A DNA stretch of 64,000 bases, taken from an uncultured Gammaproteobacteria bacterium (GTDB taxonomy: Bacteria; Pseudomonadota; Gammaproteobacteria; Steroidobacterales; Steroidobacteraceae). The notes beneath the pieces were generated by a model. The model searched no databases. It was not told the DNA's origin and worked only from the letters and a program-made list of their open reading frames with translations. Made by a program: the position numbers and the translations under genes. Below are positions 10,067 through 56,848 of the stretch, one piece after another. The stretch is taken from the NCBI GenBank assembly GCA_963843985.1, contig CAWJMS010000033.1, positions 278,951 to 342,950 on the forward strand, in the 5' to 3' direction. Numbering within the stretch: position 1 is the stretch's first letter; every line of letters starts with the position of its first letter.

Positions 10067-10147
10067 ACCGCGACTCGGATCCTCATGAATCGAAAGCGGA
10101 CCGTTGCGAGGTGGCGGCAACCGGTCCGACAAAGGGGGGCAACGGCC

Positions 10148-12103
10148 ATGTCGAACATGATCTTCGCGGCGAAGCACATGCCGCGCTGGCGCTCGACGCT
10201 CGCGCTGTCGCTGGTATCGGCCCTGACCTGTCACGTAGTGCGTGCCGGCGACTTGCCGGCCGACTCCAGCCTTGCGGCGGACGTCTTCCCGCTGCCGGCG
10301 ATTACCGTGACCGCCACCCGGATCGTCGAGGCTCCGCCGACGCTGGTCGTGCGGGACGTTTCGGTTGCAGACCTCGATGCATACAACGCGCATACCGTCG
10401 GCGAGGGCCTGACGCCGATCTCGGGCGTCAACGTCCAGAACGGCGGCACCTCCGGCGACTCACGAGCATGGATCCGCGGCTACCGGGACCGCGACACGCT
10501 CGTGTTGTTCGACGGCATCCCGATCGCATCCGGTTTCGAGGGCACCATCGACCTCAACGAGATCGCGACCGAGCAGGTCGCCGGGATCAAGGTGTTGAAA
10601 TCCGCGCCGTCGGTGATCTACGGCACGAACGGCATGGGCGGCGTGATCGACATCCTGCCGCGCAACGGCACGGATGCGAGCCTGCTGGCCGGGGAGTTCG
10701 AAGTCGGCACGGACAATCGCCTGCTGGCGCGCGCCAGTTCGGGCGCCGGCAACGGCAACCTGAGCTACCTGCTCTCGCTCAGCCACGATCGCGCGGAGGA
10801 TTACGCGCTCTCTGACGACTACCGGGGCGAACTCAATCAGCCGCCCGGCGACCGGGTCAACAGCGACTACCGTCGCGACAGCGTCTTCCTTTCACTGGAC
10901 GCCCAGGAGACCGCGGCCGGCCACCTGTCGTTGTTCTACAACCTCTCCGATGCGGAGAAGGGCCTGCCGCCGACGGCCGGCGTCGAGGATCCGGATTACC
11001 AGCGGCTGACTCGCTCGCGGCGTCAGACCGTCGGCGTGTCGGATCGGCTCTCGTCCATCCCGCTGGCCGTGAAGGCGTATTACAACAGTTACGACAGTGA
11101 TCTGACCACCTACACCGACGGCACGTACACGCTGGTGGACGACGTCGAGAAGACGCAGGACTACTCGTACGGTGTGAAGCTCTACTCGACGCTGCAGACG
11201 CACCCGAACAACACGATCGTGCTGCATGCAGCGGGGCAATCGGACGTGTTCGAGGGCGAAGGTCAACTCGAGGACGGCAACCGGGCCGAGATCACCACGT
11301 GGACCGCCGCGGTCGAGGACCAGTTCCTGATCACGAAGACGCTTTCGCTGGCGGCGGGCGGCATCTACAACCTGTTCGACCAGACGCTGCTGAATCGATC
11401 CAGCTCTGCATTCAACCCGCAGCTGGCCGTCGCCTGGCAGACCACCGACCGGCTGGCCCTGCATGCTTCGGCCGCGCAGCGCACGCGCTTTCCGAAGCTG
11501 CGCGAGCTGTACCGGCGCCGGTACGGCAATCCGGATCTCGACCCGCAGACGGCCGAAAACTACGAGATCGGGTTCACGTTCGCGCACACGTCGCGCTACC
11601 AGTCGGACGTCGCCGTGTTCCACAGCGACGTCGACGGACTGATCGAGCGTCCGGACCGACGGTCGACGTACCAGAACCTGCCCAAAGTCACGATCGACGG
11701 CGTCGAGGCTTCCACGGGCGGATGGGTCTCGGACCAGCTGTACACCCGGCTCTCGTACACCTACGTCAAGGCGGACGAATCATTGCCAGACGGCAAGAGC
11801 CGGCAGTTGCGCAGCCGGCCGGAACATACCGCACAGGCCGAGGTGCGCTACCGCTTCCCGTGGCAGATCGTCGGCTCCGCCAACGGCATCTACATCGCCG
11901 GCCTGCACGACCTCGACGACAATGACGTCTACGTGAAACTGGACAGTTACTTCGTCGCGAACCTGAAAGCCTCGAAGGTCTTCAACGACACGCTGTCGGG
12001 CTACATGGCGGTCACCAACCTGCTGGACGAGAACTACGAACAACGCCTCGGCGATCCACGCGAGGGCCGTGCCGTGCGCGTCGGCTTCGACCTGCAGCTC
12101 TGA
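10148..12103 (+). CDS. TonB-dependent outer-membrane receptor
   Basis: Intact ORF with signal peptide (MPRWRSTLALSLVSALTCHVVRA). Plug region has PAITVTATRI, DTLVLFDGIPI and IKVLKSAPSVIYGTNGMGGVIDI, followed by a long Tyr/Asp/Ser-rich barrel. The start is ambiguous (10085, 10148 or 10178). Confidence 0.85.
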   Translation: MSNMIFAAKHMPRWRSTLALSLVSALTCHVVRAGDLPADSSLAADVFPLPAITVTATRIVEAPPTLVVRDVSVADLDAYNAHTVGEGLTPISGVNVQNGGTSGDSRAWIRGYRDRDTLVLFDGIPIASGFEGTIDLNEIATEQVAGIKVLKSAPSVIYGTNGMGGVIDILPRNGTDASLLAGEFEVGTDNRLLARASSGAGNGNLSYLLSLSHDRAEDYALSDDYRGELNQPPGDRVNSDYRRDSVFLSLDAQETAAGHLSLFYNLSDAEKGLPPTAGVEDPDYQRLTRSRRQTVGVSDRLSSIPLAVKAYYNSYDSDLTTYTDGTYTLVDDVEKTQDYSYGVKLYSTLQTHPNNTIVLHAAGQSDVFEGEGQLEDGNRAEITTWTAAVEDQFLITKTLSLAAGGIYNLFDQTLLNRSSSAFNPQLAVAWQTTDRLALHASAAQRTRFPKLRELYRRRYGNPDLDPQTAENYEIGFTFAHTSRYQSDVAVFHSDVDGLIERPDRRSTYQNLPKVTIDGVEASTGGWVSDQLYTRLSYTYVKADESLPDGKSRQLRSRPEHTAQAEVRYRFPWQIVGSANGIYIAGLHDLDDNDVYVKLDSYFVANLKASKVFNDTLSGYMAVTNLLDENYEQRLGDPREGRAVRVGFDLQL

Positions 12104-12105
12104 AC

Positions 12106-13217
12106 ATGCGCGAGTCGCTCTTCCATCCCCGCAGGAGCGCGGTCACGCCCGCCGCGTTGGCGTGGATCCTCGCCGGCTGGCTGATCGCGGTCGAATCGGC
12201 GCCGGCCGCGCCCGCCTCCTGCGCGATGCTGTCGGGGTCCACGATGCGGCTGATCGTGCCGCACAATCCCGCCGGCGGCTACGACGCATACGCTCGCCTG
12301 CTGCAGCCGTTCCTCGAGAAGGAACTTCACGCGACGATCGTCGTCGACAACCGGCCGGGCGCCGGCGGGCTGATCGGCGCGGCCGCGGTCCTGGATGCGG
12401 CACCGGACGGCAGGACCCTCGGCATCCTCAATGCGGCCGGGCTGCTCGCGGCGCGTCTCGACCAGCAAGCGCCGGATCCGGCCACCGATTTCACGGTCGT
12501 CGCTCGGCTGCTCAGCAATCGAACGGTACTGGTGACGGCGCAGAATTCCGGCGTCCGCAGCCTCGACGACCTTCTGCGCCTGTCGGCCAGGCGGTCGATC
12601 ATCATCGGCGTGCGCGATGCGGGTTCAGCCAGCTTCTTCACCGTGCCTGTCGTCGCTTCGCTCGTCGGGCTGAACTATGAACTCGTCACCGGGTACGACG
12701 GCAACGCCGCACGGGCGCTCGCCGCCATCCGAGGTGAAGTCGACCTGCTGGTGCAGAACCTGGATTCCGTGCAGCGTTTGATCGCCGACGGCGAGTTGCG
12801 ACCGCTGCTGCAGTTGGCCGGCACGCGGCCAGGCGCCCGGCCCGGGCCGAACGAAGCGCTCCTCGTGAACGTTCCGGTGCTAGACGGGGAAACGGGTGTG
12901 GCGCAACGGCGGGCCAAGGGACGGGCCGAACCCGGGCGCAGGCGATGCAGCAGGCGGAAGCCCTCGCCGCGATGATCGACGCAGGGCGACTGATCGTGGC
13001 GCCCGCCAGACTGCCGGACGACACGCGCCGTTGTCTCGAGTCGGCGGTCGGCAAGGTGCTCGAGAGCCCGGGCTTCCAGGCAGCGGCGACACGCGCCAAG
13101 CTCAGCATCGAACCGGCGAATGCCGCGGAAGCACGCGCCGACATCGCGACCGCTACCCGTGCGGTGGCGCAGTTCGCGCCGCTGGTGAAGGCGGCGATGC
13201 AACGGGCCAGGCAGTAA
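12106..13217 (+). CDS. tctC: tripartite tricarboxylate transporter substrate-binding protein (Bug/TctC family), one apparent frameshift
   Basis: Starts 3 nt after the TonB receptor stop. The motif PAGGYDAYARLLQPFLEKEL...VVDNRPGAGG is typical of Bug/TctC. The C-terminal part continues in the frame of ORF 12945..13217. Confidence 0.7.
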
Positions 13218-13240
13218 CAGCGGCACGACCCAGCTGCAAC

Positions 13241-14771
13241 GACGCGGACGCATCCATCATCGATGCCGCGCTCGAAGGCCTGCGACTGGTCTTCTCCTGG
13301 CCGTACATCGTGTACCCGATCGCCGCGACGCTCGTGGCGATGATGTTTTCAGCCACACCGGGGCTCAACAGTTCGTCGCTGATGGCGCTGGTGATTCCGA
13401 TGCCATCTGCCTCGGACTCGCTGCCGGTCATGCTCGTTTTCGGCGCGCTCGTCGGCGGCGCCACGTTCATGGGATCGGTCACCGCGATCCTCTTCAACAT
13501 TCCGGGCAAGGCGTCGAACGCCGTCACCCTGCTCGACGGCTATCCCATGACGCAACAGGGCCAGGCCAAGACGGCCATCGGCTGCGCGGCCGCGTCGTCG
13601 GCTCTCGGCTCGACGCTGGGAATCGCCGTGCTCATCGGCCTGCTGCCGATCATGCGCCAGGCAGCGGTGGCCCTCGGTCCTGCCGAATACCTGATGCTCG
13701 CAATCTGGGGCCTGACGACGCTGGCCGCGCTGACGGGCAATTCGCTGGTGAAGGGTTTGATCGCCGCCGGGCTCGGGCTGCAACTCGCGTTCATCGGCCA
13801 CGATCCGCGGACCGCCGAACCTCGATTCACGTTCGGCATCGACTACCTGCAGGACGGGCTCAGCCTCGTGCCGGTTCTGCTCGGCCTGTTCGCGCTCGCC
13901 GAAGTCATCGATCTCATGGTGAGTGGCCGCGAGACGCTGTCCGGCCAGCGACGCCTGCAGGACCTCACCGGCAGCGTCACAGAAGGCGTGCGCAGTGTCT
14001 TCCGGCATTTCGGGTTGCTGGTGCGTTCGTCCGTCATCGGCGTACTTGTCGGCGCCATCCCCGGCATCGGCGGGTCGGTGGCCGGCTTCGTGGCGTACGG
14101 ACACGCCAGTCAGACCGCGCGTGACCGGTCGCGGTGTCGGCAAGGGCGACATCCGTGGTGTGCTGGCGCCAGAAGCCGCCGCCGACGCCAAGGACGGCGG
14201 CGCGCTGGTGCCGACGCTGGCGCTCGGCATCCCGGGAGGTACCGGGACGGCGATGCTGCTCGGCGTGCTGACGTTGCACGGGCTCAATCCGGGCGCGAAC
14301 TGCTGTCGAACAACCTCGTGCTCGTGTTCGTGCTGATCTGGTCGCTGTTCCTGTCGAACTGGCTCACCTCGCTGCTCGGCCTGTCGCTGGTCACACCGAT
14401 GGCCAGGCTCAGCACGCTGCGTACGTCGCGCCTCGTGCCGGTGATCCTGCACGCTCGCAATGCTGGGCGTCGGCGCAGTACCGCGGCCTCGCTGCGGACG
14501 CCGTCTGCGCGGTGGCCTTCGGGCTCGTCGGCTTCATGATGAAGCGCCACCGCTGGCACCGCGTGCCCATGGTGATCGCGATGTCGCTGGCGCCGCTGTT
14601 CGAGACCAACCTGCACCTCACGCTGCGCCTGCAGACCCTGGGCGCATCGACTTCTGGTCGCGGCCGGTGGTGCTGGTGCTGCTCGCGCTGATCGTGCTCA
14701 ACATGTTCCTGCCGGCACTGCTGACGAAGCTGCGGGAAATCCGCGCGCAGCGCGAGGCGCTGATCGCGTGA
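13241..14771 (+). CDS. tctA: tripartite tricarboxylate transporter permease TctA (at least 3 apparent frameshifts; start uncertain)
   Basis: Polytopic membrane sequence spread over three frames. Segments include LVFSWPYIVYPIAATLVAMMFSATPGL..., GDIRGVLAPEAAADAKDGGALVPTLALGIPGGTGTAMLLGVL..., and ...FWSRPVVLVLLALIVLNMFLP. No clean start codon was found because of the frame errors. Confidence 0.65.
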
Positions 14772-15246
14772 CGCCGCGCGCGACACCGCTGCGCTTCCTG
14801 CGCCGCAGCTGGGACACCGTGGTCGTCGCGCTCGCGGTCGCGACGCTGCTCGCGATGTCCATATCGCTGAGCCGGATCGCGGGCTGGATTCCCCGCCTCG
14901 TCCTCGCCATCACGTTTGCGCTGGTGGTCCTGCAACTCGGTCATCGAGTTTCGCGAACTCGGGCCGGGGCCGGCTGGGACGCCGCCGGCTCGTCTAGGCC
15001 CATGCGTCCGGCCGCCCGGTGGTGGTCGTGCTGTGGATCGCAGGCCTGATGCTGGCCGTGCTGCTCTTCGGCAACGTGATCGGCAACTCGCTGTTCTGCC
15101 TCGCCTACCTGCGCTGGCATGCTCACGAGCCCTGGCCGACGAGCAGCTTCATCGCCGTATCGCTAGGCGCGAGCGTGCAGCTGATCTTCGGCCTGCTGCT
15201 GCGCGCGCAGCTCCACACCGGCTGGCTCTGGCACCTCGCGCAGTAG
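14768..15246 (+). CDS. small integral membrane protein, possibly TctB-like (one apparent frameshift)
   Basis: The GTG start overlaps the tctA stop (GTGA). Hydrophobic segments are VVVALAVATLLAMSISL, LVLAITFALVVLQL, VVLWIAGLMLAVLLFGNVIG and SFIAVSLGASVQLIFGLLL. The family call is weak. Confidence 0.35.
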
Positions 15247-15302: not shown

Positions 15303-15921
15303 TCAACTGCCCTTCTCGTCGAGCACCAGCCGGGTAACCGTCGCCATGTCGGCGACGGAAGCGTCGGAGAACGACGCGCGCAGCCGTCCGGCCTTGTCCA
15401 CCAGGAAGACCTGGCTGGAGTGGAAGTACCCGTAGTTGCCCATCGCATCCGGTTGGTCTTTGAACGCCACCGCGGTGAAGCGCGCCGCGATGTTGGCCAC
15501 GGCACGAGGATTGCCGGTGAGGCCGATGAAGTCGGGGGAAAAGGACGCGAGGTACTTCTTCATGACCGCGGGAGTGTCCCGCTCGCCGTCCACGCTGATC
15601 ATGACCACCCGGGCCGCTCTGCAGGGCTCCGCCACTCGACTCATGCAGCAGCTTCAGTTTCGTCAGGGCGGCCGGACAGACGTCCGGGCAGTGGGTGAAC
15701 CCGAAGAAGACGAGCGTCGGCGCGCCGCGCAGGCTCGCAAAGTTGCGAGGTCGTCCGTTGTGGTCCGTCAGTTCGAAATCCGCGATCGCCTTCGGCGCGG
15801 CAATCACCGTCACCCGCTCCAGCGCAGGAAACGGCGACGGCGGGCTTGCAGTGCGCGCGGCTCCGGGCAACATCACCAGGCAAACCAGCAGCGTCGACAC
15901 CGGCACACGGATGGCCATCAT
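15303..15921 (-). CDS. SCO1/SenC family copper chaperone (thioredoxin fold), one apparent frameshift
   Basis: Signal/anchor MMAIRVPVSTLLVCLVMLPGAA and CxxxC motif FGFTHCPDVCP. The C-terminal half (VMISVDGERDTP...GYFHSSQVFLVDKAGRL) lies in the frame of ORF 15303..15644. A GAGGG sits before the ATG at 15921. The gene starts 61 nt downstream of the oxidase-peroxidase gene on the same strand. Confidence 0.75.
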
Positions 15922-15982
15922 GACGCCCTCATGAGAGCCATTGCGCAGCAACGTCGCGTCTGACGCCAAACCGGCCAACCAG

Positions 15983-18900
15983 TCAGTTCGTGTACAGGCG
16001 GCTCGCCGGGATCGCCACGTAGGATGTCGTGCCGGGCGTCTTCCAGCGGAGCTGGGCCACGGCCTGGCCGCCATTCTCGTAGAACTCCATCTTGATCGTG
16101 TAGCGCGTGCCGCCGGTCAGCGCAATCGTCGCGCTGTTGTTCGTCGATGCGGCGTGGTTGGTCCAGTTGTTGATGACCTGGACCCCGTTGATCCACAGGC
16201 GCACGCCGTCGTCCGAATTGGTCTGGAACTGGAAGTTGCCGGTCGATGAGGCTTCCACGGTGCCGGTCCATCGCACCGAGAACTTGTCCTTGTTCACACC
16301 GGTGCCGGGAGATGCGTTGCCCCAGTTGAAGTTCACGGCCTCGGTGCGCTGCAGAACGACGGTACCCGTCAAGGTCATGTTGTTGAAATACTGACCCACC
16401 AGCCCCTTGCCGGAATTCTGCGTGCTCGTCGGCGCCGAGATCTCCTGTCCGCCGATCTCCTGGACGTATGCGACGAGATTCGGCAGGTCCGTGCCCGAGA
16501 CGGTGACGTTGTTGTGAGCCCGGATTGCGTCGCTCAGCGTCGACGCCGAACCGTCGTGCAGGTAGGGCGCGGTAGCCCAGACGTCGCGCAGCGTCGGAAT
16601 GTCGATCCCGGTCAACGCGCCACCCAGGCGGGAACCGCTGCTCGCTTTCAGCGTGCCGATGTTCTGCGGATTGTTGACGCCGCTGTTGGTGAAGGCCGTG
16701 CCGCCGTGGCAGCCCGCGCAGTTCCTGGCGGTGAATACGGCGCGTCCCGCGGTGGCCGCGGCGCTGAGGCTGCCATCCGAGTTGCGCCACGGGCTGGACG
16801 CGAACGTGTTGAGCGAGGCGACGTAGGCCGCCAGGGCGTCCAGGTCGCTGCTCACGCCCGCCTTGGCAGTCGCCGAGAGGCTGGCTGCGCGTGCCGGTGT
16901 TGAACTGCGCGTCGGTCATCAGCCCGCTGCCGCCGGCGAGATTGCGGATCTGGCCCTCGAAGTCCTGCACCTCGTCGAAGTTGTTGCTCCAGTGCAGGAA
17001 GCCCTGCGCCGTGGCGGCGCGACCGCGCAGATCGATGGTGTTGCGCAGCCCCTCGCCGAAGCCGGTCAGGTCCCAGACCCGGCCGTCGTGGCCGCCATCG
17101 TTGTGGCACGACGCGCAGCTGATGTAGGCATCGCGCGCGAGCCGCGTGTCCTTCGCATCGTAGAAGAGCTGCTTGCCCTTCAGCACGGTGGCGCTCAGCT
17201 TCTCGGCGCCGACGGCCGCGAGCGTCGCGCGCAGCGGCACGTCGATCGCGCCGTCCACCAGCAGCGACGTGAGGTCGAACACGCTGACGGTCCGATCCAT
17301 GAAGTTGCTGACGTAGAGCGTCCGACCGTCGGCCGACAGCGCCAGGCCTTGCGGCGCGCGACCCACGTCGATGCGGAAGATCTGCCAGTCGTCGTACGCG
17401 CTGACGATCGCGACCTGGCGGCTCGACTCCAGTGCGACGAACATGTACACGCCCGACTGGTCGAACAGCGGCGGCACTCGCGACGCCGGAGTTGTCGAAA
17501 TCGAGGCGCGCCGCGTAGTCCTCGGTGCCGCCCGCGAGGTCGATGCGCGAACCGATGGCGCGCACCGTGCTCTGGAAGTCCAGGCCGCGGCCATCGCGCA
17601 ACATGCCCCGCTGGATATTGTCCTGCTTCGAAGGCACCCATGCGGACTGGCCGTCCGGCGACAGAGCGGTGGCGCCGAGGTAGTTCGGCACGCCGCGGCC
17701 CTGGTTCTCGGCATCCGGCTTGTCGCTGTGGCGCAGCACGATGGTTTGCTGCGGCACCAGTGACGCTGCGTCGACGACGACAACCTGGCCGCCGGTTGGC
17801 ACGCCGCCAGCCGACGTCTGCACGACCGCGGTGCTCTCCCCCGGCTGGGCCGGTGTGATGAATCTCGAGACGTAGACCCGGCTTGCCGCCGCTGTCGACC
17901 GACACATGCCGCGGGTTCGCGCCGACGTCGACACTGCCCGCCTGCGTGTAACCGGCCACATCCATTTTCAGCAGCTTGCCCGAAGCCTCCAGCGCCACGT
18001 AGGCGAACCCGCCCGTGGGCGCCATCGCGATGCCGAACGGCTGCGACGCGAACGGCAGGCCGAGCGTGCGCGTGACGGCGAGCGTGGACGGGTTGATGAC
18101 GCTGATGGTCGCGCTCTGCTTGTTGGTCACCCAGATCTCGCCGTTCGGCGCGATGGCCAGGGTACGCGGCGCGGTGCCCACGGTGATCTCCGCCAGTTTC
18201 GCGTTGGTCACGGCGTCGAAGACGCTGACCGAGTCGTTGTCCTGGTTGACCACCCACAGGCGGTCGTTGGCGCCGGCCCGGTCCTCGAAGGCGATGTTGG
18301 ACGACACGGCCGGACGATTCGCCGAGAGCGGCAGGTGCACCGTCTGCACCACGGTCTTCGTCTGCGGCAACCCGCTGTCGTCGATCGCGGTGACCGTCAC
18401 GTAGTAGATGCCCGGCCTCGCGAAACTGTGCGTGATGCGTCGGCTCCGAGGACAAGTCGGTCTGGCGGCGTGCCGTCGTCGAAGTCCCACTGGTACCGGA
18501 CATTCGAGCCACCCGTCACGCTGACCGCAAAGGTCACCGGCTGCGCCGGCGAGCTGCGGCGGCCGGCGACGGCATCGGATTGATCGTCAACGCCCCGGCC
18601 ACGGTAATGGTCCAGACGAAGCTCTTGACGTCGTTGTTGACGCCGTCGCTCGCCGCCACCACGACGTTGTAGACACCGGGCACCGTCGCGGCGCCCGGAA
18701 ATCAGACCCGTGGTCCCGTTCAACGACAATCCCGCGGGCAAGCCGCTGGCGCCGAAGCCGAGGACGTCGCCGTTCGGATCCGAGGCGGACAGCTGCAGGG
18801 ACACCGGCGCGCCAACGAGGCCCGCCTGGTTGCCGGGATCGGCGAGCACTGGCGTCACCGCTGGATTGGGCACCGTCGCGACATTGACCTTCACGATGCG

Positions 18901-20352
18901 GGCGATCGACGGCACGCCCGCGCTGTCGAGTACGAACAGCATGTAGAAGCCCGGCGGCGCATCGGCTGCGCGGGTTGGCGACTGCACCATCAACCGGTTG
19001 CCGCTGGCCCGTGAACGTCAGCTCGATGAAGCGCTGCTCCATGTTGAAGCTGTGCGTCACGGCCGCGGTCTTGATCATGACCACCCGGCCGATGCCTGGG
19101 CCCGAGGTGAAATCGACGGAGAACGTCTGGCCGATGTCGATGACCGACGGAGCCGAGTCGATGGCCGGGCGGGACGCGAGCTCACCGGATGCGTCGTACA
19201 GGTACGGCGGATAGTAGACCTCGAAGTTGGTGTTGTTCTGCGGACCGGGCGCGCCGCCGCCCGCGACCAGCACGCTGGCGTCCGGCATCAGCACGGACGT
19301 CGAGTGGTACAGCCGCGCGCGGCTCGCCGCGGGCGCCGACGGTCCAGGTGCCGGTGCTCGGATCCCAGATCTCGGCGGTGTAACTGGCGTTGGTCATGTC
19401 GTTCCAGACCGGACTGCCGCCGGTGGCCAGCACCTTGCCGTCCGGCGAGTATCGTGGCATTGACCAGTCGGCGCTGCGACGACATGGAGCCGGTCGGCGG
19501 TCACCACCGGCGCGCCGCCCGTGATGTCGATGACGACGGCGCCGTTGGAGTTGCCGCCGAATTGCAGGATGCGACCCGGCCGGAACATGGCCGCGCTCGC
19601 GTCGCTGCCGGTGGGCCCGCTGAACTGGCCCACGTTGGTGATCGAGCCCGTGCCGGCAGTGTTGACGTAGTACATCTTGCCGTTGCTGTCGTAGCCGAAC
19701 ACACGGCCGTCCGGCGCAATGAAGTTGCGCGGGTACATGAAGTCGAGGGAACCCGTACCCGCACCGGTCAGCAGCCGGAAGGTGCCGTCGGTCGCTCGGA
19801 CCTCCGGGTAATCCGTGCCGCCCGAACCACCCTGCGTGTAGACCTCGCCGCTCAGCAGCGCGATGGAGCTCGAATACCATCGCGCGCGGTTCATGTTGCC
19901 CTGGCGCGTGAGCGAGCCGCTGGTGACCGGGCTGCTGGTGTAGTCGAAGAGATTGCTGTTGTTGTTGCCGCGTGTTGGTGGTGCCCGTGCCGGTCCAGTT
20001 GTCGCCACCGGCGATGAACACGTTGCCGCCCTGGGGCAACACCAGCGTGGAACTGCAGAAGATATCGGTTCCGGTCAGGTTGGCGACCGTGGAGTGGCCA
20101 CCGCTGAGCCCGCCTGCGGGGTCCCACACGTCGTAAATGAAGTAGCCGGTCTGCGTGCCGTCGGCCTTGGTGCCGAAGCTGAGCACGCGGCCATCCGGCA
20201 TCAGCACCATGTGCACCGGAATGAGTGGCCACGGAATGACAGGCGGACCACGCACCCGTCACGTTGGGTGCAGCGGTCGCAAGGCCGGCAGACGACGCCA
20301 GGATCAGCCCCAGGAATGACCCCAGGACACCACGACGCACGATCGTAGTCAT
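15983..20352 (-). CDS. secreted multidomain protein (at least 8 apparent frameshifts): galactose-oxidase-like copper-radical oxidase (Kelch + DUF1929) / He_PIG Ig / PKD / YVTN beta-propeller / di-haem cytochrome c peroxidase / PA14
   Basis: Signal peptide MTTIVRRGVLGSFLGLILASSAGLATA from ATG 20352. Putative galactose-oxidase Cu-site equivalents are DIFCSS (Cys ~20055-20057), RWYSSS (Tyr ~19874-19876), RLYHSTS (~19304-19309) and VTHSFNMEQR (His ~19052-19054). DUF1929-like PPGFYMLFVLDSAGVPS follows, then He_PIG-like LSASDPNGDVLGFGASGLPAGLSLN, PKD-like YQWDFDDGT and YVTN-type propeller repeats. Haem motifs are CASCH (~17101-17129) and CAGCH (~16690-16730). A C-terminal PA14 runs GLVGQYFNN...DDGVRLWINGVQVINNW...QLRWKTPG. 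All segments are collinear across frames with no gene-like gaps. Confidence 0.7.
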
Positions 20353-20623
20353 CACCGCCCTGCCCCCTGTTCTTCGCGCGGTGCGTCTTCTTTGTGGCTT
20401 GCAGGGCCTGCAATTTCCACGCCAGCCGCGGGTGCGCGTAGTCGGCTCAGGCACTTACACATTCGACAGCGGACTGGATGCAGTCTTGCGGCGGCGCAGT
20501 ATGTAAAGAACGCCGACGCACAAGAACAGGCAAAACCGGCGCACGGCGCGGGCCCTCGCCCGGACCCGCCCCCTGGCTAAGGCCGCTACAACTGAATGTC
20601 ATCCCTCTGACGATTTGCGCTGA

Positions 20624-20815
20624 CGGCGAGGGCGCGACCCGAACGCACCCAAGGCTTTTGCCCTTGGCCCGTTCAAGTCTCAAGACTCATTTGCGCGCAG
20701 GTCACACCCGAACACTGACGCCTGATCGCCCTGCATCCGCGACGCAGAGCCTTGCACACGAATTGCGAGCGATCCGCCGACGTTGCAACTCAAGTGCAAT
20801 TTTCGCGGCCTCCCG
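20624..20815 (-). repeat. degenerate copy A of the tRNA-Ser 3' half plus ~125-bp conserved flanking arm (att-like remnant)
   Basis: 20624-20687 aligns with the variable-arm/T-arm part of the tRNA-Ser at 25636. Examples: ccaaggcttttgcccttgg against cggaaggctttcaccttcgg, and gttcaagtctcaagact against copy B gttcaaatctcaagact. 20750-20815 aligns at ~70% with 23731-23796, with the same spacing. Confidence 0.55.
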
Positions 20816-20985
20816 TCGCTCGCATCCACATCGAGCATTGCAAACTGATCGTGCTTCCGACGCCGAACGTCGCCATTGCCCTGCGCCAGGCGCTCTGTGC
20901 GCCAAGCAACAGACGGGTCGGCGGTCCGCGCCTATACAGGTCGCCTTGCATCCGCTTCCGCGGCTGCGCATTTCCAAAGGACGTC

Positions 20986-23525
20986 ATGAGCAATCGGGGC
21001 TATCTGTGTATTCTCGCCTTGCTGGGCATGATGCTGCCTGCCATCGCGCAGCCGGCCGCGGCCCCCGCCCCAGTGGCAGACGCTCCTACACTGAGCGGCC
21101 TTGTGCCTCCACCGAACCTTGACTTCCGGGTTGCTCCCGCGTCGGTCGCGAAGGGCGCATCCGCATCCATCAGTTGGTCGAGCAAGTACGCAAGCAGCTG
21201 CACGGCCGGTGGCGGTTGGTCCGGCGCCAAGGCGAAAAGCGGCACGCAGTCGAGTGGCGCGCTGTCGGCGACGACCACGTTCACGCTCAGTTGCACAGGC
21301 GCCGGCGGCACGGCCAGCCAGAGCGCAACTGTCGACCGTGGCGGCAGCAGCGCCGACCGTGTCCCTGACCGCGAGTCCAGCTTCGGTCGCAAGCGGCGGG
21401 ATCCTCCACGCTGACATGGAGCTCGACCAACGCGACGCAGTTGCACGGCCTCCGGCGGCTGGAGCGGCGCCAAGGCGACGAGCGGCACGCAGTCGAGTGG
21501 CGCGCTGTCGGCGACGACCACGTTCACGCTCAGTTGCACCGGCGCCGGCGGCACGGCCAGCCAGAGCGCAACTGTCACCGTGGCGGCAGCAGCGCCGACC
21601 GTGTCCCTGACCGCGAATCCAACGTCGGTCGCAAGCGGCTCGTCCTCCACGCTGACGTGGAGCTCGACCAACGCGACGCAGTTGCACGGCCTCCGGCGGC
21701 TGGAGCGGCGCCAAGGCGACGAGCGGCACGCAGTCGAGCGGCGCGCTGTCGGCGACGACCACGTTCACGCTCAGTTGCACGGGCGCCGGCGGCACGGCCA
21801 GCCAGAGCGCAACTGTCACCGTGCGGCACCGACGGTGTCCCTGACCGCGAGTCCAGCTTCAGTCGCAAGCGGCTCGTCCTCCACGCTGACATGGAGCTCG
21901 ACCAACGCGAGCTGCACGGCCTCCGGTGGCTGGAGCGGCGCAAGGCGACGAGCGGCACGCATCGAGCGGCGCGGTCGCGACGACCACGTTCACGCTCACC
22001 TGCACGGGCGCCGGCGGCACAGCGAGCCAGAGCGAACGGTCACGGTGGCGGCAGCAGCGCCGACGGTCACTGACCGCAAATCAGCGTCGGTCGCAAGCGG
22101 CGCCTCTTCGACGCTGACCTGGAGCTCGACCAACGCAACCAGTTGCACGGCCTCCGGCGGCTGGAGCGGCGCCAAGGCGACCAGCGGCACGCAGTCGACC
22201 GGCGCGCTGGCCGCGACGACCACCTATCACGCTCACCTGCACGGGCGCCGGCGGCACCGCAAGCGACAGCATCACCGTCACGGTCGGCGCCGTCGCCGGT
22301 CCGGCCTTCCCGCTGCACGTCGAAGCCGGCAAGCGCTACTTGGTCGATGCCGCGGGCCAGCCTTTCTTCATGAACGGCGACACGCCCTGGGACCTGATTG
22401 CCCAGCTCAAGCGCGAGGATGTGGACGTCGTACCTGGAGAACCGGCGACTCAAGGGATTCAACACGATCCTCGTCGAACTGATGGAACACCAGTTTTCAT
22501 CGAACCCGCCGAACAATGTGTACGGTGCTGCGCCCTTCACCACCCCGGGCGATTTCTCGACGCCGAACGAGGCCTATTTCGCGCACGCCGAGTACGTGAT
22601 TGCCAAAGCGAAGTCGAAAGGCATCCTGGTGCTGATCACGCCGGCCTACATGGGCGGCGGCGGTGAGGGCTGGTACCAGGAGATGGTGGCGAACGGCGAG
22701 GCCAAGCTGCGCGCATACGGCCAATACGTCGCAAATCGCTTCAAGGCGTACGACAACATCCTCTGGGTCGAGGGCGGCGACTACAATCCTCCGGAGAAGG
22801 TGCTGCTGCGCGCGGTGGCCAACGGCATCCGCGACGTCACGCCGAACGCGCTGCAGACGTTCCATGGATCCAGGGGCACCTCCGCACTCGCCTTCCTCGG
22901 CACCTCCGAGCCCTGGCTCAACGTCAACACGATCTATACCGACGAAACCACCGTCGTCGCCAACGCGTTCCTGGAATACGGCCGCTCGACGATGCCGTTC
23001 TTCCTGGTCGAGGCTCGCTACGAGGGCGAACGGGCTTCGGTGAGCTGATCGCGCGATCGCAGGCCTACCAGACCGTGCTGTCGGGTGGCATGGGCCACCT
23101 GTACGGCAACGATCCGCTGTGGTACTTCCCGGCGGGCTGGCAAGCGGCGATGAACGACCCGGCTGCGGCGAGCCTGGCCTACTTGCGGACTCTTTTCGAT
23201 TCACTCGCCTGGTGGACCCTGGTCCCCGACACCGGCAATGCGCTCCTGACGGCGGGCACCGGCTCGGGCAGCTCGCGCGCGGTCGCGGCCAAGGCCAGCA
23301 CCGGTGCGTTCGCGATTCTCTATACGCCCTCGGTGCGCGCCTTGACCGTCAACCTGGCGCAGCTGAGCGGACCGAACGTGCGGGCACGCTGGTACGACCC
23401 GACGAGCGGCACGTACGCGCCCATCGCTGGTTCGCCGTTCGCCGCCAGTGGCTCACGGACTTCACGCCGACCGGCAGCAACGCAACGGAGTTGGTGACTG
23501 GGTGCTGGTGCTTGAAAGCCAGTGA
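20986..23525 (+). CDS. secreted protein with five tandem ~81-aa Ig-like repeats, a DUF4038 (GH140-like) domain and a C-terminal collagen-binding-like beta-sandwich (at least 5 apparent frameshifts)
   Basis: Signal peptide MSNRGYLCILALLGMMLPAIAQP. Repeats follow the pattern APTVSLTASPASVASGxSSTLTWSSTNATxCTASGGWSGAKATSGTQSSGALSATTTFTLSCTGAGGTASQSATVTV. The DUF4038-like core reads KRYLVDAAGQPFFMNGDTPWDL...KGFNTILVELME...ILWVEGGDYNP. The C-terminus is ...RARWYDPTSGTY...DWVLVLESQ*, with stop at 23523-23525. Confidence 0.7.
21105..22290 (+). repeat. five tandem ~240-243-bp coding repeats (Ig-like modules); copies 2 and 3 are nearly identical at the DNA level
   Basis: The string gcagcagcgccgaccgtgtccctgaccgcga recurs at ~21345 and ~21588. 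Diverged versions occur near ~21828 and ~22050. There are long identical runs between ~21440-21600 and ~21680-21830. Confidence 0.8.
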
Positions 23526-25635: not shown

Positions 25636-25725
25636 TGGCGGTGGGGGTGGGATTCGAACCCACGGAAGGCTTTCACCTTCGGCAGTTTTCAAGACTGCTG
25701 CCATCAACCGCTCGGCCACCCCACC
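25636..25725 (-). tRNA. tRNA-Ser (anticodon UGA), class II with long variable arm
   Basis: The reverse complement folds by hand as GGTGGGG-TG-GCC GAGCGGTTGAT GGC-A-GCAGT CTTGAAA ACTGC-CGAAGGTGAAAGCCTTCC-GTGGG TTCGAAT CCCAC-CCCCACC-G-CCA. The 7-bp acceptor, T-loop TTCGAAT, encoded CCA and anticodon loop CT-TGA-AA are all present. Confidence 0.9.
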
Positions 25726-29554: not shown

Positions 29555-31881
29555 TCAATCGGCGTCGGGGGGCGGCGGCGCAAGCACTTCGCGGCTGCCG
29601 TTCGACTGCAGCGGACCGACGAGGCCCACGGCTTCCATCGCCTCGATCATCCGTGCCGCGCGGTTGTAGCCGATCTTCAGCCGGCGCTGCACGCCGGAAA
29701 TCGACGCCTTGCGGCTCTCGGTGACGATGCGGACGGCTTCGTCGTAGAGCGGATCCTGTTCGGGATCGCCGCCCTCCTCGCCTTCGCCGCCGGCCTCGCC
29801 GGACAGGCCGGGGATCGGCGCGGACGGGCCGTCGAGGATGTCGTCGAGGTAGACCGGCGGGCTCATCGTGCGCAGCGAGCCGACGACCCGGTGCACTTCC
29901 TGGTCCGACACGAACGCGCCGTGCACGCGCACCGGTATCGAGGTGCCGGGCTGCAGGAACAGCATGTCGCCGTGGCCGAGCAGGCTCTCGGCGCCGCTCT
30001 GGTCGAGGATGGTGCGCGAATCCACCTTGGCCGACACCTGGAACGCGATGCGCGTCGGGATGTTGGCCTTGATCAGGCCCGTGATCACGTCGACCGACGG
30101 CCGCTGCGTGGCGAGGATCAGGTGGATGCCCGAGGCGCGCGCCTTCTGCGCGAGGCGCGCGATGAGTTCCTCCACCTTCTTGCCGACGATCATCATCATG
30201 TCGGCGAGTTCGTCGACGATCACGACGACGTACGGCAGCGGCTTCGAGGAAAGGCACGGTGTCCGGATCGCCGCCCGGCGGCAGCCGCTTCATCTCGAGC
30301 GGATCGCGCATCGGCGTGCCGGCGTCGGCGAGATCCTTCACCTTGCGGTTGAAGCCGGCGAGGTTGCGCACGCCGGCCGCGGCCATCAACTGGTAGCGGC
30401 GCTCCATTTCCGCGACGCACCAGCGCAGCGCGTTCGCCGCCTGCTTCATGTCGGTGACGACCGGCGCGTACAGGTGCGGGATGCCCTCGTAGACCGAGAG
30501 CTCCAGCATCTTCGGGTCGACCATGATCAGCCGCACGTGCTCGGGCGTCGCCTTGTACAGCAGCGACAGCACCATCGCGTTGATGGCCGTCGACTTGCCG
30601 GAGCCGGTGGTGCCGCCGACCAGCAGGTGCGGCATGCGGGCGAGGTCCGCGACGATCGGGTTGCCGCCGATGTCCTTGCCGAGCACCAGCGCGAGCGGCG
30701 ACGACATGTCGTCGTAGGCCTTGGACTTGATGATTTCGCCGAGCGTGACGATCTCGCGCGTCTCGTTCGGGATCTCGATGCCCATCGTGGACTTGCCGGG
30801 AATGATCTCGACGACGCGCACGCTCACGGCGGAGAGCGCGCGCGCCAGGTCCTTCGCGAGGTTCGAGATCTGCGCGACCTTCACGCCCGGCGCCGGCCGC
30901 AGCTCGAAGCGCGTGATCACCGGGCCCGGGTGCACCTCGACGACCTCGGCCTCGACGCCGAAATCGCGCAGCTTCAGTTCCACGAGGCGCGACATCGCCT
31001 CGAGCGCCTCGGCCGAATAGCCGCCGTGCCGCGGCCGGCGCGTCGTCGAGCAGCGACAGCGCCGGCAGCGACGTGGCGCCCGGCTTCTCGAACATCGGGA
31101 CCTGCTTTTCCTTCTCGACGCGCTCGCTCTTCTCGACCTTCGGCGCCGGCGCCTCGATCCGCGGCGGCTTGCGGTCCGCGACCTTCTTCTGTTCTTCGCG
31201 CACGACTTCCTGTCGCGCCTGCTTCACCTCGCGTCCGGCCTTCGCGTCGCGCGCGGCCGACAGCCGGTCCCGCAGCCACGAAATCGCGAGCAGCACGCCG
31301 CGACCGATCCGGTCCATCACGTCGAGCCAGGAGATGCCGGTGCAGAGCGACACCGAGGCGAGCCAGACGGCGAGCAGCAGCAGCGTGGCGCCGAGGAAGC
31401 TCATGGCGCTGGGCAAGGCCGTCGCCGGCCAGCGTGCCGAGCAGGCCGCCCGCGGTGTTCGGGAACGAGCCGCCCGAGAAATGCAGCGTCGCCAGTCCGC
31501 AGCTGCTCGCGAGCGCCAGCACGAAACCGAGGCCGCGCAGCGTCGACGTGCGGCGATCGACGGGCTCCGGATTGCGGCGCCCCTGGAAGAGATTCCAGCC
31601 CGCGATACCGAGCATGATCGGGAACAGGTAGGCCGGGCGCGCCGAACAGCACGAAGAACAGGTCGGAGAGCCACGCGCCGAACGGACCGATCAGGTTCGT
31701 CGACCGGTCCCGGTTGTCCCGTCGAGGTGAACGAAGGGTCGGCGCGGTCGTAGCTGATCAGCGCGACGAACAGGATCAGCGCCAGTGCGCCGAAGATCCA
31801 CAGCGCGCTTTCGCGCAAGCCTCGCGCAACGTTGGCCGCCTGTGCGCCGCCGGCCGCGCGCTTCTGCTCGAGTCTAGCCAC
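29555..31881 (-). CDS. ftsK: DNA translocase FtsK (at least 5 apparent frameshifts)
   Basis: N-terminal membrane segment is MARLEQKR...[18 protein letters not shown]. The motor has Walker [10 protein letters not shown] and ...[10 protein letters not shown]. The gamma domain reads [21 protein letters not shown]. The pieces are spread over ORFs 30220..31881, 30974..31615, 29496..30995 and 29555..30223. Confidence 0.9.
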
Positions 31882-32058: not shown

Positions 32059-33085
<1,027 letters not shown>

Positions 33086-35645: not shown

Positions 35646-37920
35646 CTATTCGAGCAGCGCGGGCTCCTCCGCCGAGCGCGCCTCGACCTTGAGCTGATCG
35701 TCCGGCCCCACGCTGACGAAGGCGTGGCCGCCCTTCTGCAGCCGGCCGAACAGCAACTCCTCGGCCAGCGGCCGCTTGATGTGCTCCTGGATGATGCGCG
35801 CCATCGGCCGCGCGCCCATCTTCGGATCGTAGCCGCGCTTCGCGATCCACTGGCGCGCTTCGTCGTCGATGTGCAGCGCGACGCCCTTCTGCTCGAGCTG
35901 CGCCTCGACCTCGACCAGCAGCTTGTCGACGACACGCTCGATCGTCCGCTCGTCGAGCGACTCGAACTGGACGATCGCGTCGAGGCGGTTGCGGAACTCC
36001 GGCGCGAACAGCCGCTTGATGGCTTCCATGCCGTCGGTCGCGTGGTCCTGCGCGACGAAGCCGATCGACGCGCGGCTCATCTCCGAGGCGCCGGCGTTGG
36101 TCGTCATCACGATCACGACGTGGCGGAAATCCGCCTTGCGGCCGTTGTTGTCGGTCAGCGTGCCGTGGTCCATGACCTGCAGCAGCAGGTTGAACACGTC
36201 CGGGTGCGCCTTCTCGATCTCGTCGAGCAGCAGCACGCAGTGCGGGTGCTTGGTGATCGCCTCGGTGAGCAGCCCGCCCTGGTCGAAACCGACGTAGCCC
36301 GGCGGCGCGCCGATCAGCCGCGACACCGTGTGCCGCTCCATGTACTCGGACATGTCGAAGCGGATCAGCTCGACGCCGAGCGTCAGCGCGAGCTGGCGCG
36401 TCACCTCGGTCTTGCCGACGCCGGTCGGACCGGCGAACAGGAACGAGCCCACCGGCTTGTGCTGGTCGCCCAGGCCCGAGCGCGACATCTTGATCGACGA
36501 CGCCAGCGTCTCGATCGCCTTGTCCTGACCGAAGATGACGAGCTTCAGGTTGCGCTCGAGGTTGCGCAGCACGTCGCGGTCGCTGCTGGAGACCGTCTTC
36601 GGCGGGATGCGCGCGATGCGCGCGACGACGTCCTCGATGTGCGCGACGGTGACCGTCTCCTCGCGGGCCTCCGGCGGCCTCAGGCGCAGGCGCGCGCCGG
36701 CCTCGTCGATGACGTCGATGGCCTTGTCCGGCAGGTGGCGGTCGTTGATGTGGCGGGCCGACAGTTCCGCGGCGGCCGTCAGCGACTCGTCGGCGTAGCG
36801 GATGCCGTGGTGCTCCTCGAACTTGGGCCTGAGGCCGCGCAGGATCTCGATCGTTTCGGGCACCGTCGGCTCGACGATGTCGATCTTCTGGAAGCGGCGC
36901 GTCAGCGCGTGGTCCTTCTCGAAGATGCCGCGGTACTCCTGGTAGGTGGTCGAACCGATGCAGCGCAGCTCGCCGTTGGCGAGCGCCGGCTTGATCAGGT
37001 TCGACGCGTCCATGACGCCGCCCGACGCCGCGCCGGCGCCGATGACGGTGTGGATCTCGTCGATGAACAGGATCGCGCCGGGCTGCTTCTTGATCTCGGC
37101 GAGCACGCCCTTCAGGCGCTTCTCGAAGTCGCCGCGATACTTGGTGCCGGCGATCAGCGAGCCGAGGTCGAGCGAGAACACGACGCTGTCGGCCAGCACG
37201 TCGGGCACCTTGCCCTCGACGATCAGGCGCGCGAGGCCTTCGACCAGCGCGGTCTTGCCGACGCCGGCCTCGCCGACGTAGAGCGGGTTGTTCTTGCGCC
37301 GGCGGCAGAGGATCTCGACCGTGCGCTCGATCTCGAGCTGGCGGCCGATCAGCGGATCGATGCGGCCCTGCTCCGCGAGCTTGTTCAGGTTGGTGGCGTA
37401 CTTGTCGAGCGCCGAGCCGCCCTCGGCGTCGCGCTCGCCCTCCGGCTGCGGCGTGGCCTCGTCGCTCGGCCGCTCGCGCTCGTCGCCGGGCTTGGCGAGC
37501 CCGTGCGAGATGAAGTTGACGACGTCGAGGCGCGAGATGTCCTGCAGGCCGAGCAGGTAGACCGCGTGGCTGTGCTTCTCGCTGAAGATGGCGACCAGCA
37601 CGTTGGCGACCGAGACTTCCTTCTTGCCGCTCGACTGCACGTGGAAGACGGCGCGCTGCAGCACCCGCTGGAAACCCAGCGTCGGCTGCACCTCGCGGTC
37701 GTCGTCCTGCTTCAGGCGCGGCGTCGTCTGGTCGACGAATTCCTTCAGTTCCTTGCGCAGGCGCGCGGCGTCGGCGCCGCAGGCACGGAGGATCTCGCGC
37801 ACCTTCGGGCGTATCGATGATCGCGAGCAGCAGGTGCTCGACCGTCATGAATTCGTGGCGCGCGTCACGGGCCCCCTGGAAGGCCTCGTTCAGGCAGATC
37901 TCGAGTTCGCTGCTCAACAC
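35646..37920 (-). CDS. clpA: ATP-dependent Clp protease ATP-binding subunit ClpA (one apparent frameshift near 37800)
   Basis: The GTG start lies 4 nt after the clpS stop ([39 protein letters not shown]). The 718-aa main frame has Walker A motifs GEAGVGKT and GPTGVGKT. The break is at a CCC run. Confidence 0.95.
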
Positions 37921-43143: not shown

Positions 43144-43152
43144 CGCAGCAAC

Positions 43153-44376: not shown

Positions 44377-44379
44377 CCT

Positions 44380-44476
44380 CTTCACCTCTCCCGCTTGCGG
44401 GATCTTCACCTCTCCCGCTTGCGGGATCTTCACCTCTCCCGCTGCGGGAGGTCGCGCGCGAGCGCGGGTGAGGGCG
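44380..44476. repeat. REP-family cluster: 24-nt unit cttcacctctcccgcttgcgggat repeated 2.5 times, plus a gcgggtgaggg arm
   Basis: Copies lie at 44380-44403, 44404-44427 and 44428-44450 (variant), followed by gtcgcgcgcgagcgcgggtgagggc. This is the reverse orientation of the unit at 50559-50657. Confidence 0.8.
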
Positions 44477-44491
44477 TGCCGCAGGCGCAAG

Positions 44492-44715
44492 CCAAGGCAA
44501 TCCCGGTCCCGGTTCTCTTCCGCGCTCCAGGTCGTACGCGCGCTGCGACGAGCGGAGGAATCGGGAGAACCGTCGGCGACCTTGCGCAGAGCGGTGATCG
44601 GGGCGACTCGTCTCGCGAAACGTCGCGGGCGGTTACGCCCCGATTCCAACGGGGGCATCGTCGAAGCGCGGTCGACATGGAGCGCGGAAGAGAACCGGGA
44701 CCGGGATTGCCTCGG
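44492..44715. repeat. MITE-like element / long hairpin: 43-nt terminal inverted repeats (2 mismatches) flanking ~138 nt
   Basis: Left arm 44492-44534 is ccaaggcaatcccggtcccggttctcttccgcgctccaggtcg. The right arm 44673-44715 is its reverse complement with 2 mismatches. There is no coding capacity. The arm resembles the hairpin at 35481-35535. Confidence 0.65.
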
Positions 44716-45081
44716 CAGCCGTCGCATGCGGACTGCAGGATCTCACCCGGCCGGGAGGCCGGTCTCCCCCGCAAGCGGGAGAGCTCAGTCGGAGCGGTCG
44801 TCGCTGAAGAGCCGCGCGCGCAACCGTCGCAGCACGGATTCCTCCCAACCGAAGCCGTCGTCCACCGCCGCACCGTCGAGCGACCCCGACGCGCCCTGGG
44901 AGGCTGGCTTCGACATCAGCGACTCAACGCGGCTCGCGACCCGTCGCAGGGTCGCCGTTTCCCAGTCGTCCTTGCTGTCTGGTTCGGCCAATGCCCGGAC
45001 TCCCGTACCACCTGGCGCCAACTTAGCCGGGTCGCGCGCCGGTCAGCGGGACGCCCGTCACATCTCACGCCGGCAACGGGC

Positions 45082-45513: not shown

Positions 45514-45564
45514 GCCGGGATTATAGGCCGCCTATAATCGCCGATTGCGACGGAGACTGCGCTC

Positions 45565-46755: not shown

Positions 46756-46781
46756 CGACCCCCCCTCGGAGGCAAGCTCAC

Positions 46782-47810: not shown

Positions 47811-47811
47811 C

Positions 47812-48132: not shown

Positions 48133-48330
48133 GTGCGCTCCCGGATGGCGAACGTGGCCGCGAGTCTACCGCACGACCGGCGCCCGATACGCCGGGCGGC
48201 CGGGTCCGCCCGTCAGCGGCACGCCATTTCGTACATCGCTAATGCGCCGCGAGGCCGCGAATAGTAGATTGCACGGCTGGCGCGGAAGCCCCCTTCGGCG
48301 CCATCACCCGACAATTTCAGGAAGCTCCCC

Positions 48331-56761: not shown

Positions 56762-56848
56762 GTTGAAACCTCGACCGTCGCGCCGGCATGAATCCGCGCA
56801 GGGTGGCGAATTATAGAGAAAAGCTCGCCTCCTCAGGTCGGCCGCGGC

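Follow-up and report, generated by a model that had tools for sequence, protein, structure and literature searches.

Copper-radical oxidases need an initial oxidation, typically supplied by a peroxidase, and fungi have natural, co-located peroxidase partners for them (PMC12951238, PMC11611005). In Streptomyces lividans, maturation of the copper-radical oxidase GlxA depends on the chaperone Sco and on the peroxidase DtpA (PMC4736821). Here, we describe a gene on the minus strand of a 64,000-nucleotide stretch of an uncultured Gammaproteobacteria contig (Steroidobacteraceae; CAWJMS010000033.1), hereafter the window, in which a copper-radical oxidase is joined in one chain to Ig-like spacers, a beta-propeller, a c-type di-haem domain and a C-terminal PA14 domain. 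A SCO1/SenC copper chaperone gene follows it on the same strand. The partnership of copper-radical oxidase, peroxidase and Sco is already known; the natural single-chain fusion, the hydrazine-synthase-like c-type di-haem partner and the scale of the family appear to be undescribed.

Several described systems resemble parts of this locus. The galactose and alcohol oxidases (CAZy AA5_2; Fusarium 1GOF and Pseudoarthrobacter 9G43) share the seven-bladed Kelch propeller, the E-set fold and the copper ligand set of its oxidase, but the fusion protein has no N-terminal CBM32 domain, the loop with the stacking Trp290 is deleted in the alignment, and there are ~950 more residues, including two c-type haem sites. 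The Streptomyces GlxA/Sco/DtpA system (PMC4736821) likewise links a copper-radical oxidase, Sco and a haem peroxidase-type partner, and the gammaproteobacterial clade of the fusion family keeps the link to Sco within the same operon. DtpA, however, is a separate, Tat-exported DyP with haem b, whereas the partner in the window is a fused di-haem-c domain that would need Sec and Ccm. In the AlcOx-PerOx tandem of Colletotrichum and Magnaporthe (PMC11611005, PMC12951238), the oxidase is likewise paired, genetically and functionally, with an activating haem peroxidase. There, head-to-head genes encode two separate secreted partners, of which the peroxidase carries haem b, in contrast to the single polypeptide and c-type di-haem found here.

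The sequence-only reading of this DNA had proposed the fusion but had left it to be decided whether the stretch holds one gene or several. As given, the minus strand from 20352 to 15983 has no single open reading frame (ORF) in the ORF listing. This listing and ordinary tblastn were unable to place the frame breaks, which were located with a frame plot of GC content at third codon positions (GC3), a codon-usage dynamic program and frameshift-aware protein-to-DNA alignment. The GC3 plot has one collinear coding signal that switches frame about a dozen times, and the dynamic program yielded a stitched protein of ~1450 amino acids (aa). Its best intact homologue (P0001, 1448 aa) matches at 87% identity and 100% coverage. 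Aligned with the window DNA, P0001 reveals 14 frame events, each of +1 nt (89% identity, 1446 matched codons), and DNA alignment with a homologous contig (L001, 85% nucleotide identity) gives the same 14 unbalanced one-base insertions in the window. They lie at ~20241, 19970, 19495, 19443, 19325, 19009, 18696, 18560, 18538, 18468, 18437, 17884, 17469 and 16868. Once these bases are removed, 1451 uninterrupted codons run from the ATG at 20352 to the codon at 15988-15986, followed by TGA. Many intact homologues of ~1448 aa have the same domain order, and the stretch is one gene, not several. The coordinates and the 61-nt gap before the SCO1 gene were confirmed, as were the copper and haem motifs that had been quoted, which stand in the frame-corrected protein together with every domain named beforehand (Table 1).

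A genuine pseudogene, with 14 real frameshifts and a protein that is no longer made, would also leave no intact ORF in the sequence as given, and the defects are patchy, with some window genes free of insertions (e.g. 10085-12103, 35670-37739 and 40266-49392). We nevertheless regard this explanation as very improbable. All of the events are +1, and the alignments to P0001 and L001 contain no deletions, nonsense changes or larger lesions among the frame events of the fusion gene. The ratio of nonsynonymous to synonymous substitution (dN/dS) against L001 is 0.13 overall and 0.09-0.23 per domain, with a dS of 0.47. A codon model of the whole window finds the same type of event, again patchily, in further genes on both strands; ffh, ftsK and trxB have 2-5 single-base insertions each, and the stitched Ffh, FtsK and thioredoxin reductase contain complete SRP54, FtsK_SpoIIIE and Pyr_redox_2 Pfam domains across the junctions. 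Because these single-copy essential genes bear +1 lesions of the same kind, the 14 insertions are most likely sequence errors rather than gene decay, and we treat the locus as one intact gene. The extra bases were checked for homopolymer context, and no association was found. The window copy is thus an ordinary family member in error-rich sequence, and its product is predicted to be one exported protein of ~155 kDa.

The family to which it belongs is large. When one genome was scanned for each species, at least 584 loci came to light. Most of them belong to Steroidobacteraceae-like Gammaproteobacteria or to Burkholderiales (Rubrivivax, Piscinibacter, Ideonella, Rhizobacter and Methylibium), and cultured strains are among the carriers. 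The 641-aa propeller/di-haem block served as query in an exhaustive search without profiles, which returned 1,635 representatives of 50%-identity clusters at E <= 1e-30, and the best 149 of these 1,635 were used to count architectures and haem residues. The oxidase is also present in 116 of the 149; the other 33 mostly start mid-domain and are N-terminally truncated fragments, while about half a dozen are seemingly complete stand-alone modules. Split versions, with the oxidase and di-haem parts in neighbouring genes, were sought beside the few complete stand-alone modules, and no adjacent oxidase was found, one upstream gene being truncated by a contig end. The association of the oxidase with the propeller/di-haem block is near-obligate. 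The exact domain order of the window, with a single PA14, is the commonest among close relatives (84/121). The architecture had been thought uncharacterized, and we found no publication characterizing it in the open-access literature, where absence is not proof; the family itself is common, not rare. Its members have no uniform database name; the generic labels in use are YVTN family beta-propeller protein, PA14 domain-containing protein, cytochrome c peroxidase and DUF1929 domain-containing protein.

Some members depart from the usual arrangement. In a 2362-aa protein of Rivibacter subsaxonicus (P0003), the HePIG-PKD-propeller-di-haem-PA14 block is duplicated behind one oxidase, and in P0252 the order is reversed, with the di-haem block N-terminal to the oxidase. 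Two small CCP_MauG-type genes lie divergent to and just upstream of the gene for a divergent member (P0254, 2326 aa; L084, 6093-7733 minus). A rare stand-alone propeller/di-haem lipoprotein of 681 aa (P0190; L085, 8001-10046) has neighbours from aromatic catabolism, namely protocatechuate dioxygenase subunits, a GMC oxidoreductase and a molybdenum hydroxylase. Members also occur in metagenome-assembled genomes (MAGs) labelled Planctomycetota and Chloroflexota (L012 and L083), by possible lateral transfer or mis-binning; L012 also has a downstream Sco, as is typical of the gammaproteobacterial clade.

The oxidase domain can be assigned without reliance on Pfam, because solved galactose oxidases match it by both sequence and fold. 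Glyoxal_oxid_N scores 30.8 bits on the stitched protein, under its cut-off of 37.5, and its precomputed match is marked weak in P0001 and unmarked in a Piscinibacter homologue; this model describes the N-terminus of AA5_1, and the domain in the window is nearer AA5_2. Among PDB sequences, galactose oxidases match at E-values of 3e-48 to 4e-35, GlxA at 4e-26 and glyoxal oxidase at 5e-21. The motifs DIFCSS (C99), RWYSSS (Y159), LYHS (Y347/H348) and THSFN (H432) place these residues in alignment with the thioether Cys, cofactor Tyr, axial Tyr-His pair and last His of solved galactose oxidases; in galactose oxidase numbering, C228 and Y272 correspond to C99 and Y159, and Y495, H496 and H581 to Y347, H348 and H432. 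An AlphaFold2 (AF2) model of the oxidase domain of a homologue has a predicted local distance difference test (pLDDT) score of 94.4. It superposes on the bacterial galactose oxidase 9g43 (31% identity) and on Fusarium 1gof with template modelling (TM) scores of 0.86-0.89, and its top 27 PDB fold matches are all copper-radical oxidases (TM 0.81-0.89).

The domain had been described as both galactose-oxidase-like and GlxA-like, and only the first half of this description stands. Identity is 27-31% to galactose oxidases but 19-20% to GlxA, which the model matches at a TM score of 0.82, and the GlxA equivalog NF052501 of NCBIfam gives 143.4 bits against a cut-off of 800, with the match confined to residues 264-482. 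Judged by its sequence and its modelled fold, the domain is galactose/alcohol-oxidase-like (AA5_2 type) and not GlxA-like. The predicted copper site, including its Cys-Tyr pair, is conserved. C99, Y159, Y347, H348 and H432 are invariant in all 121 close family members, and in the aligned sequences of distant representatives they are kept in 101/103, 105/106, 115/115, 114/115 and 118/119 cases, respectively.

Behind the oxidase and its spacers lies the propeller/di-haem block. On the stitched protein, the YNCE/YVTN propeller scores 26.7 bits, slightly below its Pfam cut-off of 27.1, and on P0001 the YVTN repeat model TIGR02276 reaches 69.6 bits against 27.85. The AF2 model of the propeller has a pLDDT of >90, and its best fold match is the beta subunit of hydrazine synthase (5c2v_B), followed by 1l0q. 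In the di-haem domain, CCP_MauG scores 32.4 bits (cut-off 25.6) and RoxA-like_Cyt-c 28.2 bits, and the CASCH and CAGCH sites fall at residues 1075 and 1207. PDB sequence matches of this domain are led by hydrazine synthase gamma (1.8e-15), Shewanella CcpA (2.6e-13) and Pseudomonas CCP (1.8e-9), and the alignment to 3o5c and 1eb7 spans both CxxCH sites.

Both CxxCH motifs are invariant in the 121 close members and present in all 149 cluster representatives, as are W1117, D1085, R1087, W1089, E1123, D1126 and Q1130. H1116, H1275 and R1132 are found in 148 of the 149 and E1128 in 147. W1117 corresponds to the inter-haem Trp (W94) of the bacterial cytochrome c peroxidases (bCCPs), and N1100, kept in 141/149, to their calcium-site Asn (N79). 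In addition, the domain carries an invariant motif specific to the family, HWSNNFDEVQDFEGQIR. With bCCP and MauG (PF03150; 1EB7, 3O5C) it shares the CxxCH spacing, these Trp and Asn residues and a PTLR(N/D)V...APY.H.G motif, but the fusion differs in a His that takes the place of Met275, in the family motif and in the attached propeller. With hydrazine synthase beta/gamma (5C2V) it shares the seven-bladed propeller beside a CCP-like di-haem domain and a second haem with bis-His ligation, predicted in the fusion. The resemblance is very remote, though, and the fusion differs in lacking an alpha subunit, in its aerobic hosts and in the copper oxidase to which the block is joined. These comparisons place the di-haem module, as predicted from its sequence, in a distinct branch of the CCP/MauG/hydrazine-synthase-gamma superfamily, for which peroxidase activity is plausible.

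The same matches raise the question of nitrogen-oxide chemistry, in which the block would act like hydrazine synthase beta/gamma (NO to hydroxylamine) with the oxidase as an accessory. The top sequence and fold matches are indeed the gamma and beta subunits, and the beta-gamma fusion model of NCBIfam matches at E 7.8e-24. Nonetheless, this explanation seems extremely unlikely to us. The scores against NF052342, NF052341 and NF052340 are 83.8, 63.9 and 45.4 bits, against cut-offs of 1250, 625 and 560. The family lives in aerobic Proteobacteria of soil and water, and neither an alpha-subunit homologue nor nitrogen-cycle genes lie nearby. Dietl and colleagues are said to have seen, in 2015, a Cys covalently bonded to haem gamma-I of hydrazine synthase gamma; the Cys in DRVCG of 5c2v_C aligns with an Ala, in NLAGG, of the di-haem domain. 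As a separate observation, distant homologues of hydrazine synthase have been reported only in anaerobic Planctomycetota and Desulfobacterota (PMC12758564), and the aerobic proteobacterial fusion family may, from its sequence relationships, be a further remote branch of them.

The chaperone gene downstream is a well-supported SCO1/SenC member. PF02630 covers profile positions 2-133 of 134 in the corrected protein at 135.9 bits (cut-off 22.8), and the best PDB match is Bradyrhizobium ScoI (Blr1131, 4wbj; E 8e-35), with which it shares an identical THCPDVCP, the conserved His and a hydrophobic N-terminus that is predicted to be a membrane anchor or signal. It differs from ScoI in being dedicated, by position, to an oxidase gene and not to cytochrome oxidase genes. 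One +1 insertion in this gene was mapped at ~15617 against L001, and the same DNA alignment suggests a possible further extra base at ~15959 in the spacer. A CcmG-like role was considered and rejected, given the CxxxC motif and His, the strong SCO1 score and a weak AhpC-TSA score. No minus-strand promoter- or terminator-like site was found in the 61-nt spacer, where scans gave nothing above chance.

In most close relatives, a Sco gene lies 56-140 nt 3' of the fusion gene (60 nt in the nearest homologous contig). Adjacency was counted in a set of 82 loci, of which 31 gammaproteobacterial and 41 Burkholderiales loci were evaluable. Of the gammaproteobacterial loci, 30/31 have an adjacent Sco, which in 26 comes directly after the fusion gene on the same strand; the one locus without it holds a second paralogue, and the first copy in that genome does have Sco. 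The Steroidobacteraceae MAG DAIQBB01 has two paralogues (L006 and L009), with Sco after one only. The expected co-occurrence with SCO1 therefore applies to the gammaproteobacterial clade but not to Burkholderiales. Across the whole window, there is no synteny with the closest contig outside this two-gene module.

In Piscinibacter sp. XHJ-5, whose genome has no adjacent Sco, a bufferin-type copper-binding peptide operon (BufA1, MbnB-like, HvfC and DoxX; L002, 3324-5777) lies ~4 kb upstream of the homologue; this could be a further connection to copper or chance.

As predicted from these comparisons, the invariant core of the family is a galactose-oxidase-type oxidase tethered via Ig-like spacers to a PKD/propeller/di-haem-c block. 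PKD is almost always immediately N-terminal to the propeller in relatives, and other modules vary. He_PIG occurs in 0 to ~10 copies and PA14 in 0 to 5, on either side of the haem block. F5/8-type-C domains are found in divergent members, and unassigned stretches in the family reach up to 1300 aa. The PA14 of the window, whose match covers profile positions 3-142 of 147 (cut-off 24), finds its best PDB match in the paired PA14 domains of the Clostridium anti-sigma factor RsgI3 (6qe7). PA14 had been counted as part of the machine; it is present here but is no part of the invariant core, being replaced by other modules elsewhere, and is probably a variable module of the glycan-binding type.

Our best reading, on which we consider the balance about even, is that the fusion would be a natural, single-chain version of the known oxidase-peroxidase partnership, as suggested by the sequence and by analogy with the described systems. 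The twin Arg of the signal peptide is not kept in the family consensus and attachment of c-type haem requires Sec, and for these reasons the protein is probably exported by Sec rather than Tat. After export, Ccm would attach the two c-type haems, and the co-transcribed, membrane-anchored Sco would deliver periplasmic copper to the oxidase, so that the Tyr-Cys cofactor could form; this role for Sco is proposed because of the analogy with GlxA. The oxidase would then oxidize a primary alcohol or aldehyde, with O2 reduced to H2O2. Its substrate would probably be on a carbohydrate polymer kept near by PA14-type modules, a targeting that we propose because PA14 and F5/8-type-C modules are present. 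A five-coordinate haem close by would react with the H2O2 and the bis-His haem would relay electrons, so that H2O2 is removed at its source and a one-electron oxidation keeps the Cu(II)-tyrosyl radical charged. A more specific proposal, which we offer tentatively and think doubtful, is a self-priming oxidase: the di-haem block would capture the H2O2 made by its own chain, and the high-valent haem would restore the Cu(II)-tyrosyl radical by long-range intrachain transfer.

Several observations weigh against the reading as a fused oxidase-peroxidase pair. The di-haem peroxidase had been recognized by its two CxxCH sites, which do lie in a CCP_MauG fold, but it is not a canonical CCP: Met275 of Pseudomonas CCP, which supplies the sixth ligand to the electron-transfer haem, aligns with H1275, an essentially invariant His, and bis-His ligation is predicted for the second haem. 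In the pairwise alignment, Thr and Gly stand opposite CCP His71 and Glu114, respectively, in a poorly aligned region near which the fusion family has invariant acidic and amide residues. Structure modelling, which had been suggested as a check, supports the oxidase fold but leaves the di-haem part at low confidence (pLDDT 30-70). The propeller and di-haem domains have their nearest relatives in the subunits of hydrazine synthase, an enzyme with different chemistry. Among the 41 Burkholderiales loci, Sco is adjacent in none (0/41) and directly downstream in none (0), and clustering of neighbours in the 82 loci gives no conserved partner besides Sco.

Another reading is a dehydrogenase mode, in which the di-haem block would be an electron-exit cytochrome, as in cellobiose dehydrogenase or the quinohaemoprotein dehydrogenases, and electrons from the copper site would pass through the haems to an external acceptor instead of O2. 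The His at the Met position of the second haem would suit such a role, the bis-His haem II of hydrazine synthase gamma is thought to carry electrons (PMC12758564), and the fusion is nearly obligate. Known copper-radical oxidases, however, are reoxidized by O2. As a matter of general knowledge, the Tyr radical couple is far more oxidizing than a typical bis-His haem c, which makes electron flow from the oxidase to the haem unfavourable, and the invariant polar set at the first haem (D1085, R1087, E1123, D1126, E1128, Q1130 and R1132) looks more like a catalytic pocket. We rate the dehydrogenase mode as unlikely.

A high-valent di-haem site could also oxidize a protein residue at long range and so act, not as a general peroxidase, but as a MauG-like maturase or cross-linker that builds or repairs the Tyr-Cys cofactor or cross-links the target polymer. 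Membership of the CCP/MauG superfamily and the fully conserved inter-haem W1117 fit this idea, the second haem, with its non-Met ligation, recalls MauG in spirit, and the peroxidase dependence of GlxA maturation (PMC4736821) offers a precedent. Yet the MauG equivalog TIGR03791 reaches 46 bits, where its cut-off is 443.85, and the Tyr-Cys link of galactose oxidase forms from copper and O2 alone (general knowledge). The proposal overlaps with the radical-recharging step of the fused oxidase-peroxidase reading, differing from it in emphasis, and as an explanation in its own right it strikes us as distinctly unlikely.

The features of the locus and of its surroundings are listed in Table 1.

Table 1. 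Position and supporting evidence of features in the window (position 1 is its first nucleotide)
Feature	Position	Strand	Evidence or detail
Whole fusion gene, 1451 aa after frame correction	15983..20352	minus	ATG 20352-20350, TGA 15985-15983
14 single extra bases in fusion gene	16868..20241	minus	Alignments to P0001 protein and L001 DNA
Predicted signal peptide, MTTIVRRGVLGSFLGLILASSAGLATA / APN	20272..20352	minus	Basic n-region, hydrophobic core and A-x-A site read from sequence
Kelch propeller of copper-radical oxidase	19175..20271	minus	Galactose oxidase PDB matches, AF2 model
Codons of predicted copper site	C99 20057-20055; Y159 19876-19874; Y347/H348 19309-19304	minus	
Galactose oxidase-like E-set domain (DUF1929)	18877..19174	minus	PF09118, 88 bits; fourth copper ligand H432 at 19054-19052
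He_PIG Ig-like spacer	18588..18849	minus	PF05345, 55 bits
PKD domain	18326..18559	minus	PF00801, 53.7 bits
Seven-bladed YVTN/YncE-type beta-propeller	17250..18304	minus	Pfam YNCE, TIGR02276, AF2 fold
Di-haem c domain	16439..17222	minus	CCP_MauG, RoxA-like_Cyt-c; CASCH from 17117, CAGCH from 16720
H1116-W1117 dyad; H1275 at CCP Met-ligand position	W 16991-16989; H1275 16516-16514	minus	
C-terminal PA14	15995..16399	minus	PF07691, 109.9 bits
Intergenic spacer, 61 nt	15922..15982	minus	GAGGG ribosome-binding site before SCO1 ATG, read from sequence
SCO1/SenC copper chaperone, ~205 aa corrected	15303..15921	minus	PF02630; ATG at 15921, stop 15305-15303
TonB-dependent receptor, then TctC and TctA	10085-14932	plus	
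Region 5' of fusion gene	20353-22036		~1.7 kb
Apiosidase-like secreted protein	22036-23452	plus	PF13204
tRNA-Ser (anticodon TGA)	25636-25725	minus	Rfam, ARAGORN
ftsK	29594-31809	minus	
trxB	32131-32909	plus	
ffh	55424-56767	minus	

Around the locus, the TonB-dependent receptor gene is intact and, with the tricarboxylate-transporter genes for TctC and TctA behind it, converges on the SCO1 gene; TctA is apparently frameshifted several times. No convincing coding periodicity was seen in the region 5' of the fusion gene, whose ORFs have no Pfam match and which has no Rfam match. Beyond it, the apiosidase-like protein has an N-terminal Ig-like repeat and 2-3 frame events, and no other carbohydrate-active gene lies closer to the locus; no cslA-type glycan synthase was found nearby. 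The tRNA-Ser gene is the sole RNA gene identified in the window by Rfam and ARAGORN. In the loci compared, the neighbours other than Sco are housekeeping genes (secD, yajC, tgt, queA and uvrA-like) or antisense artefacts.

In practice, copper-radical oxidase biocatalysts need added peroxidase or a chemical oxidant for activity, and natural peroxidase partners of these enzymes have been recognized only recently in fungi and through genetics in Streptomyces. Cultured carriers of the fusion include Steroidobacter agaridevorans SA29-B, Piscinibacter defluvii SH-1, Rhizobacter sp. Root404 and Ideonella lacteola. The family would give a first functional context to the propeller/di-haem block, the sole solved relatives of which are subunits of the anammox hydrazine synthase, and the clade-specific Sco makes the delivery of copper to a non-respiratory enzyme in the periplasm more tractable. 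The fusion family would offer a single-chain model of communication between two catalysts and a source of possibly self-activating oxidases. If the self-priming proposal is true, these enzymes would need no external activator and would release little free peroxide, and the fusion would be a bacterial, single-chain answer to the problem of activation, for which fungi use a separate peroxidase.

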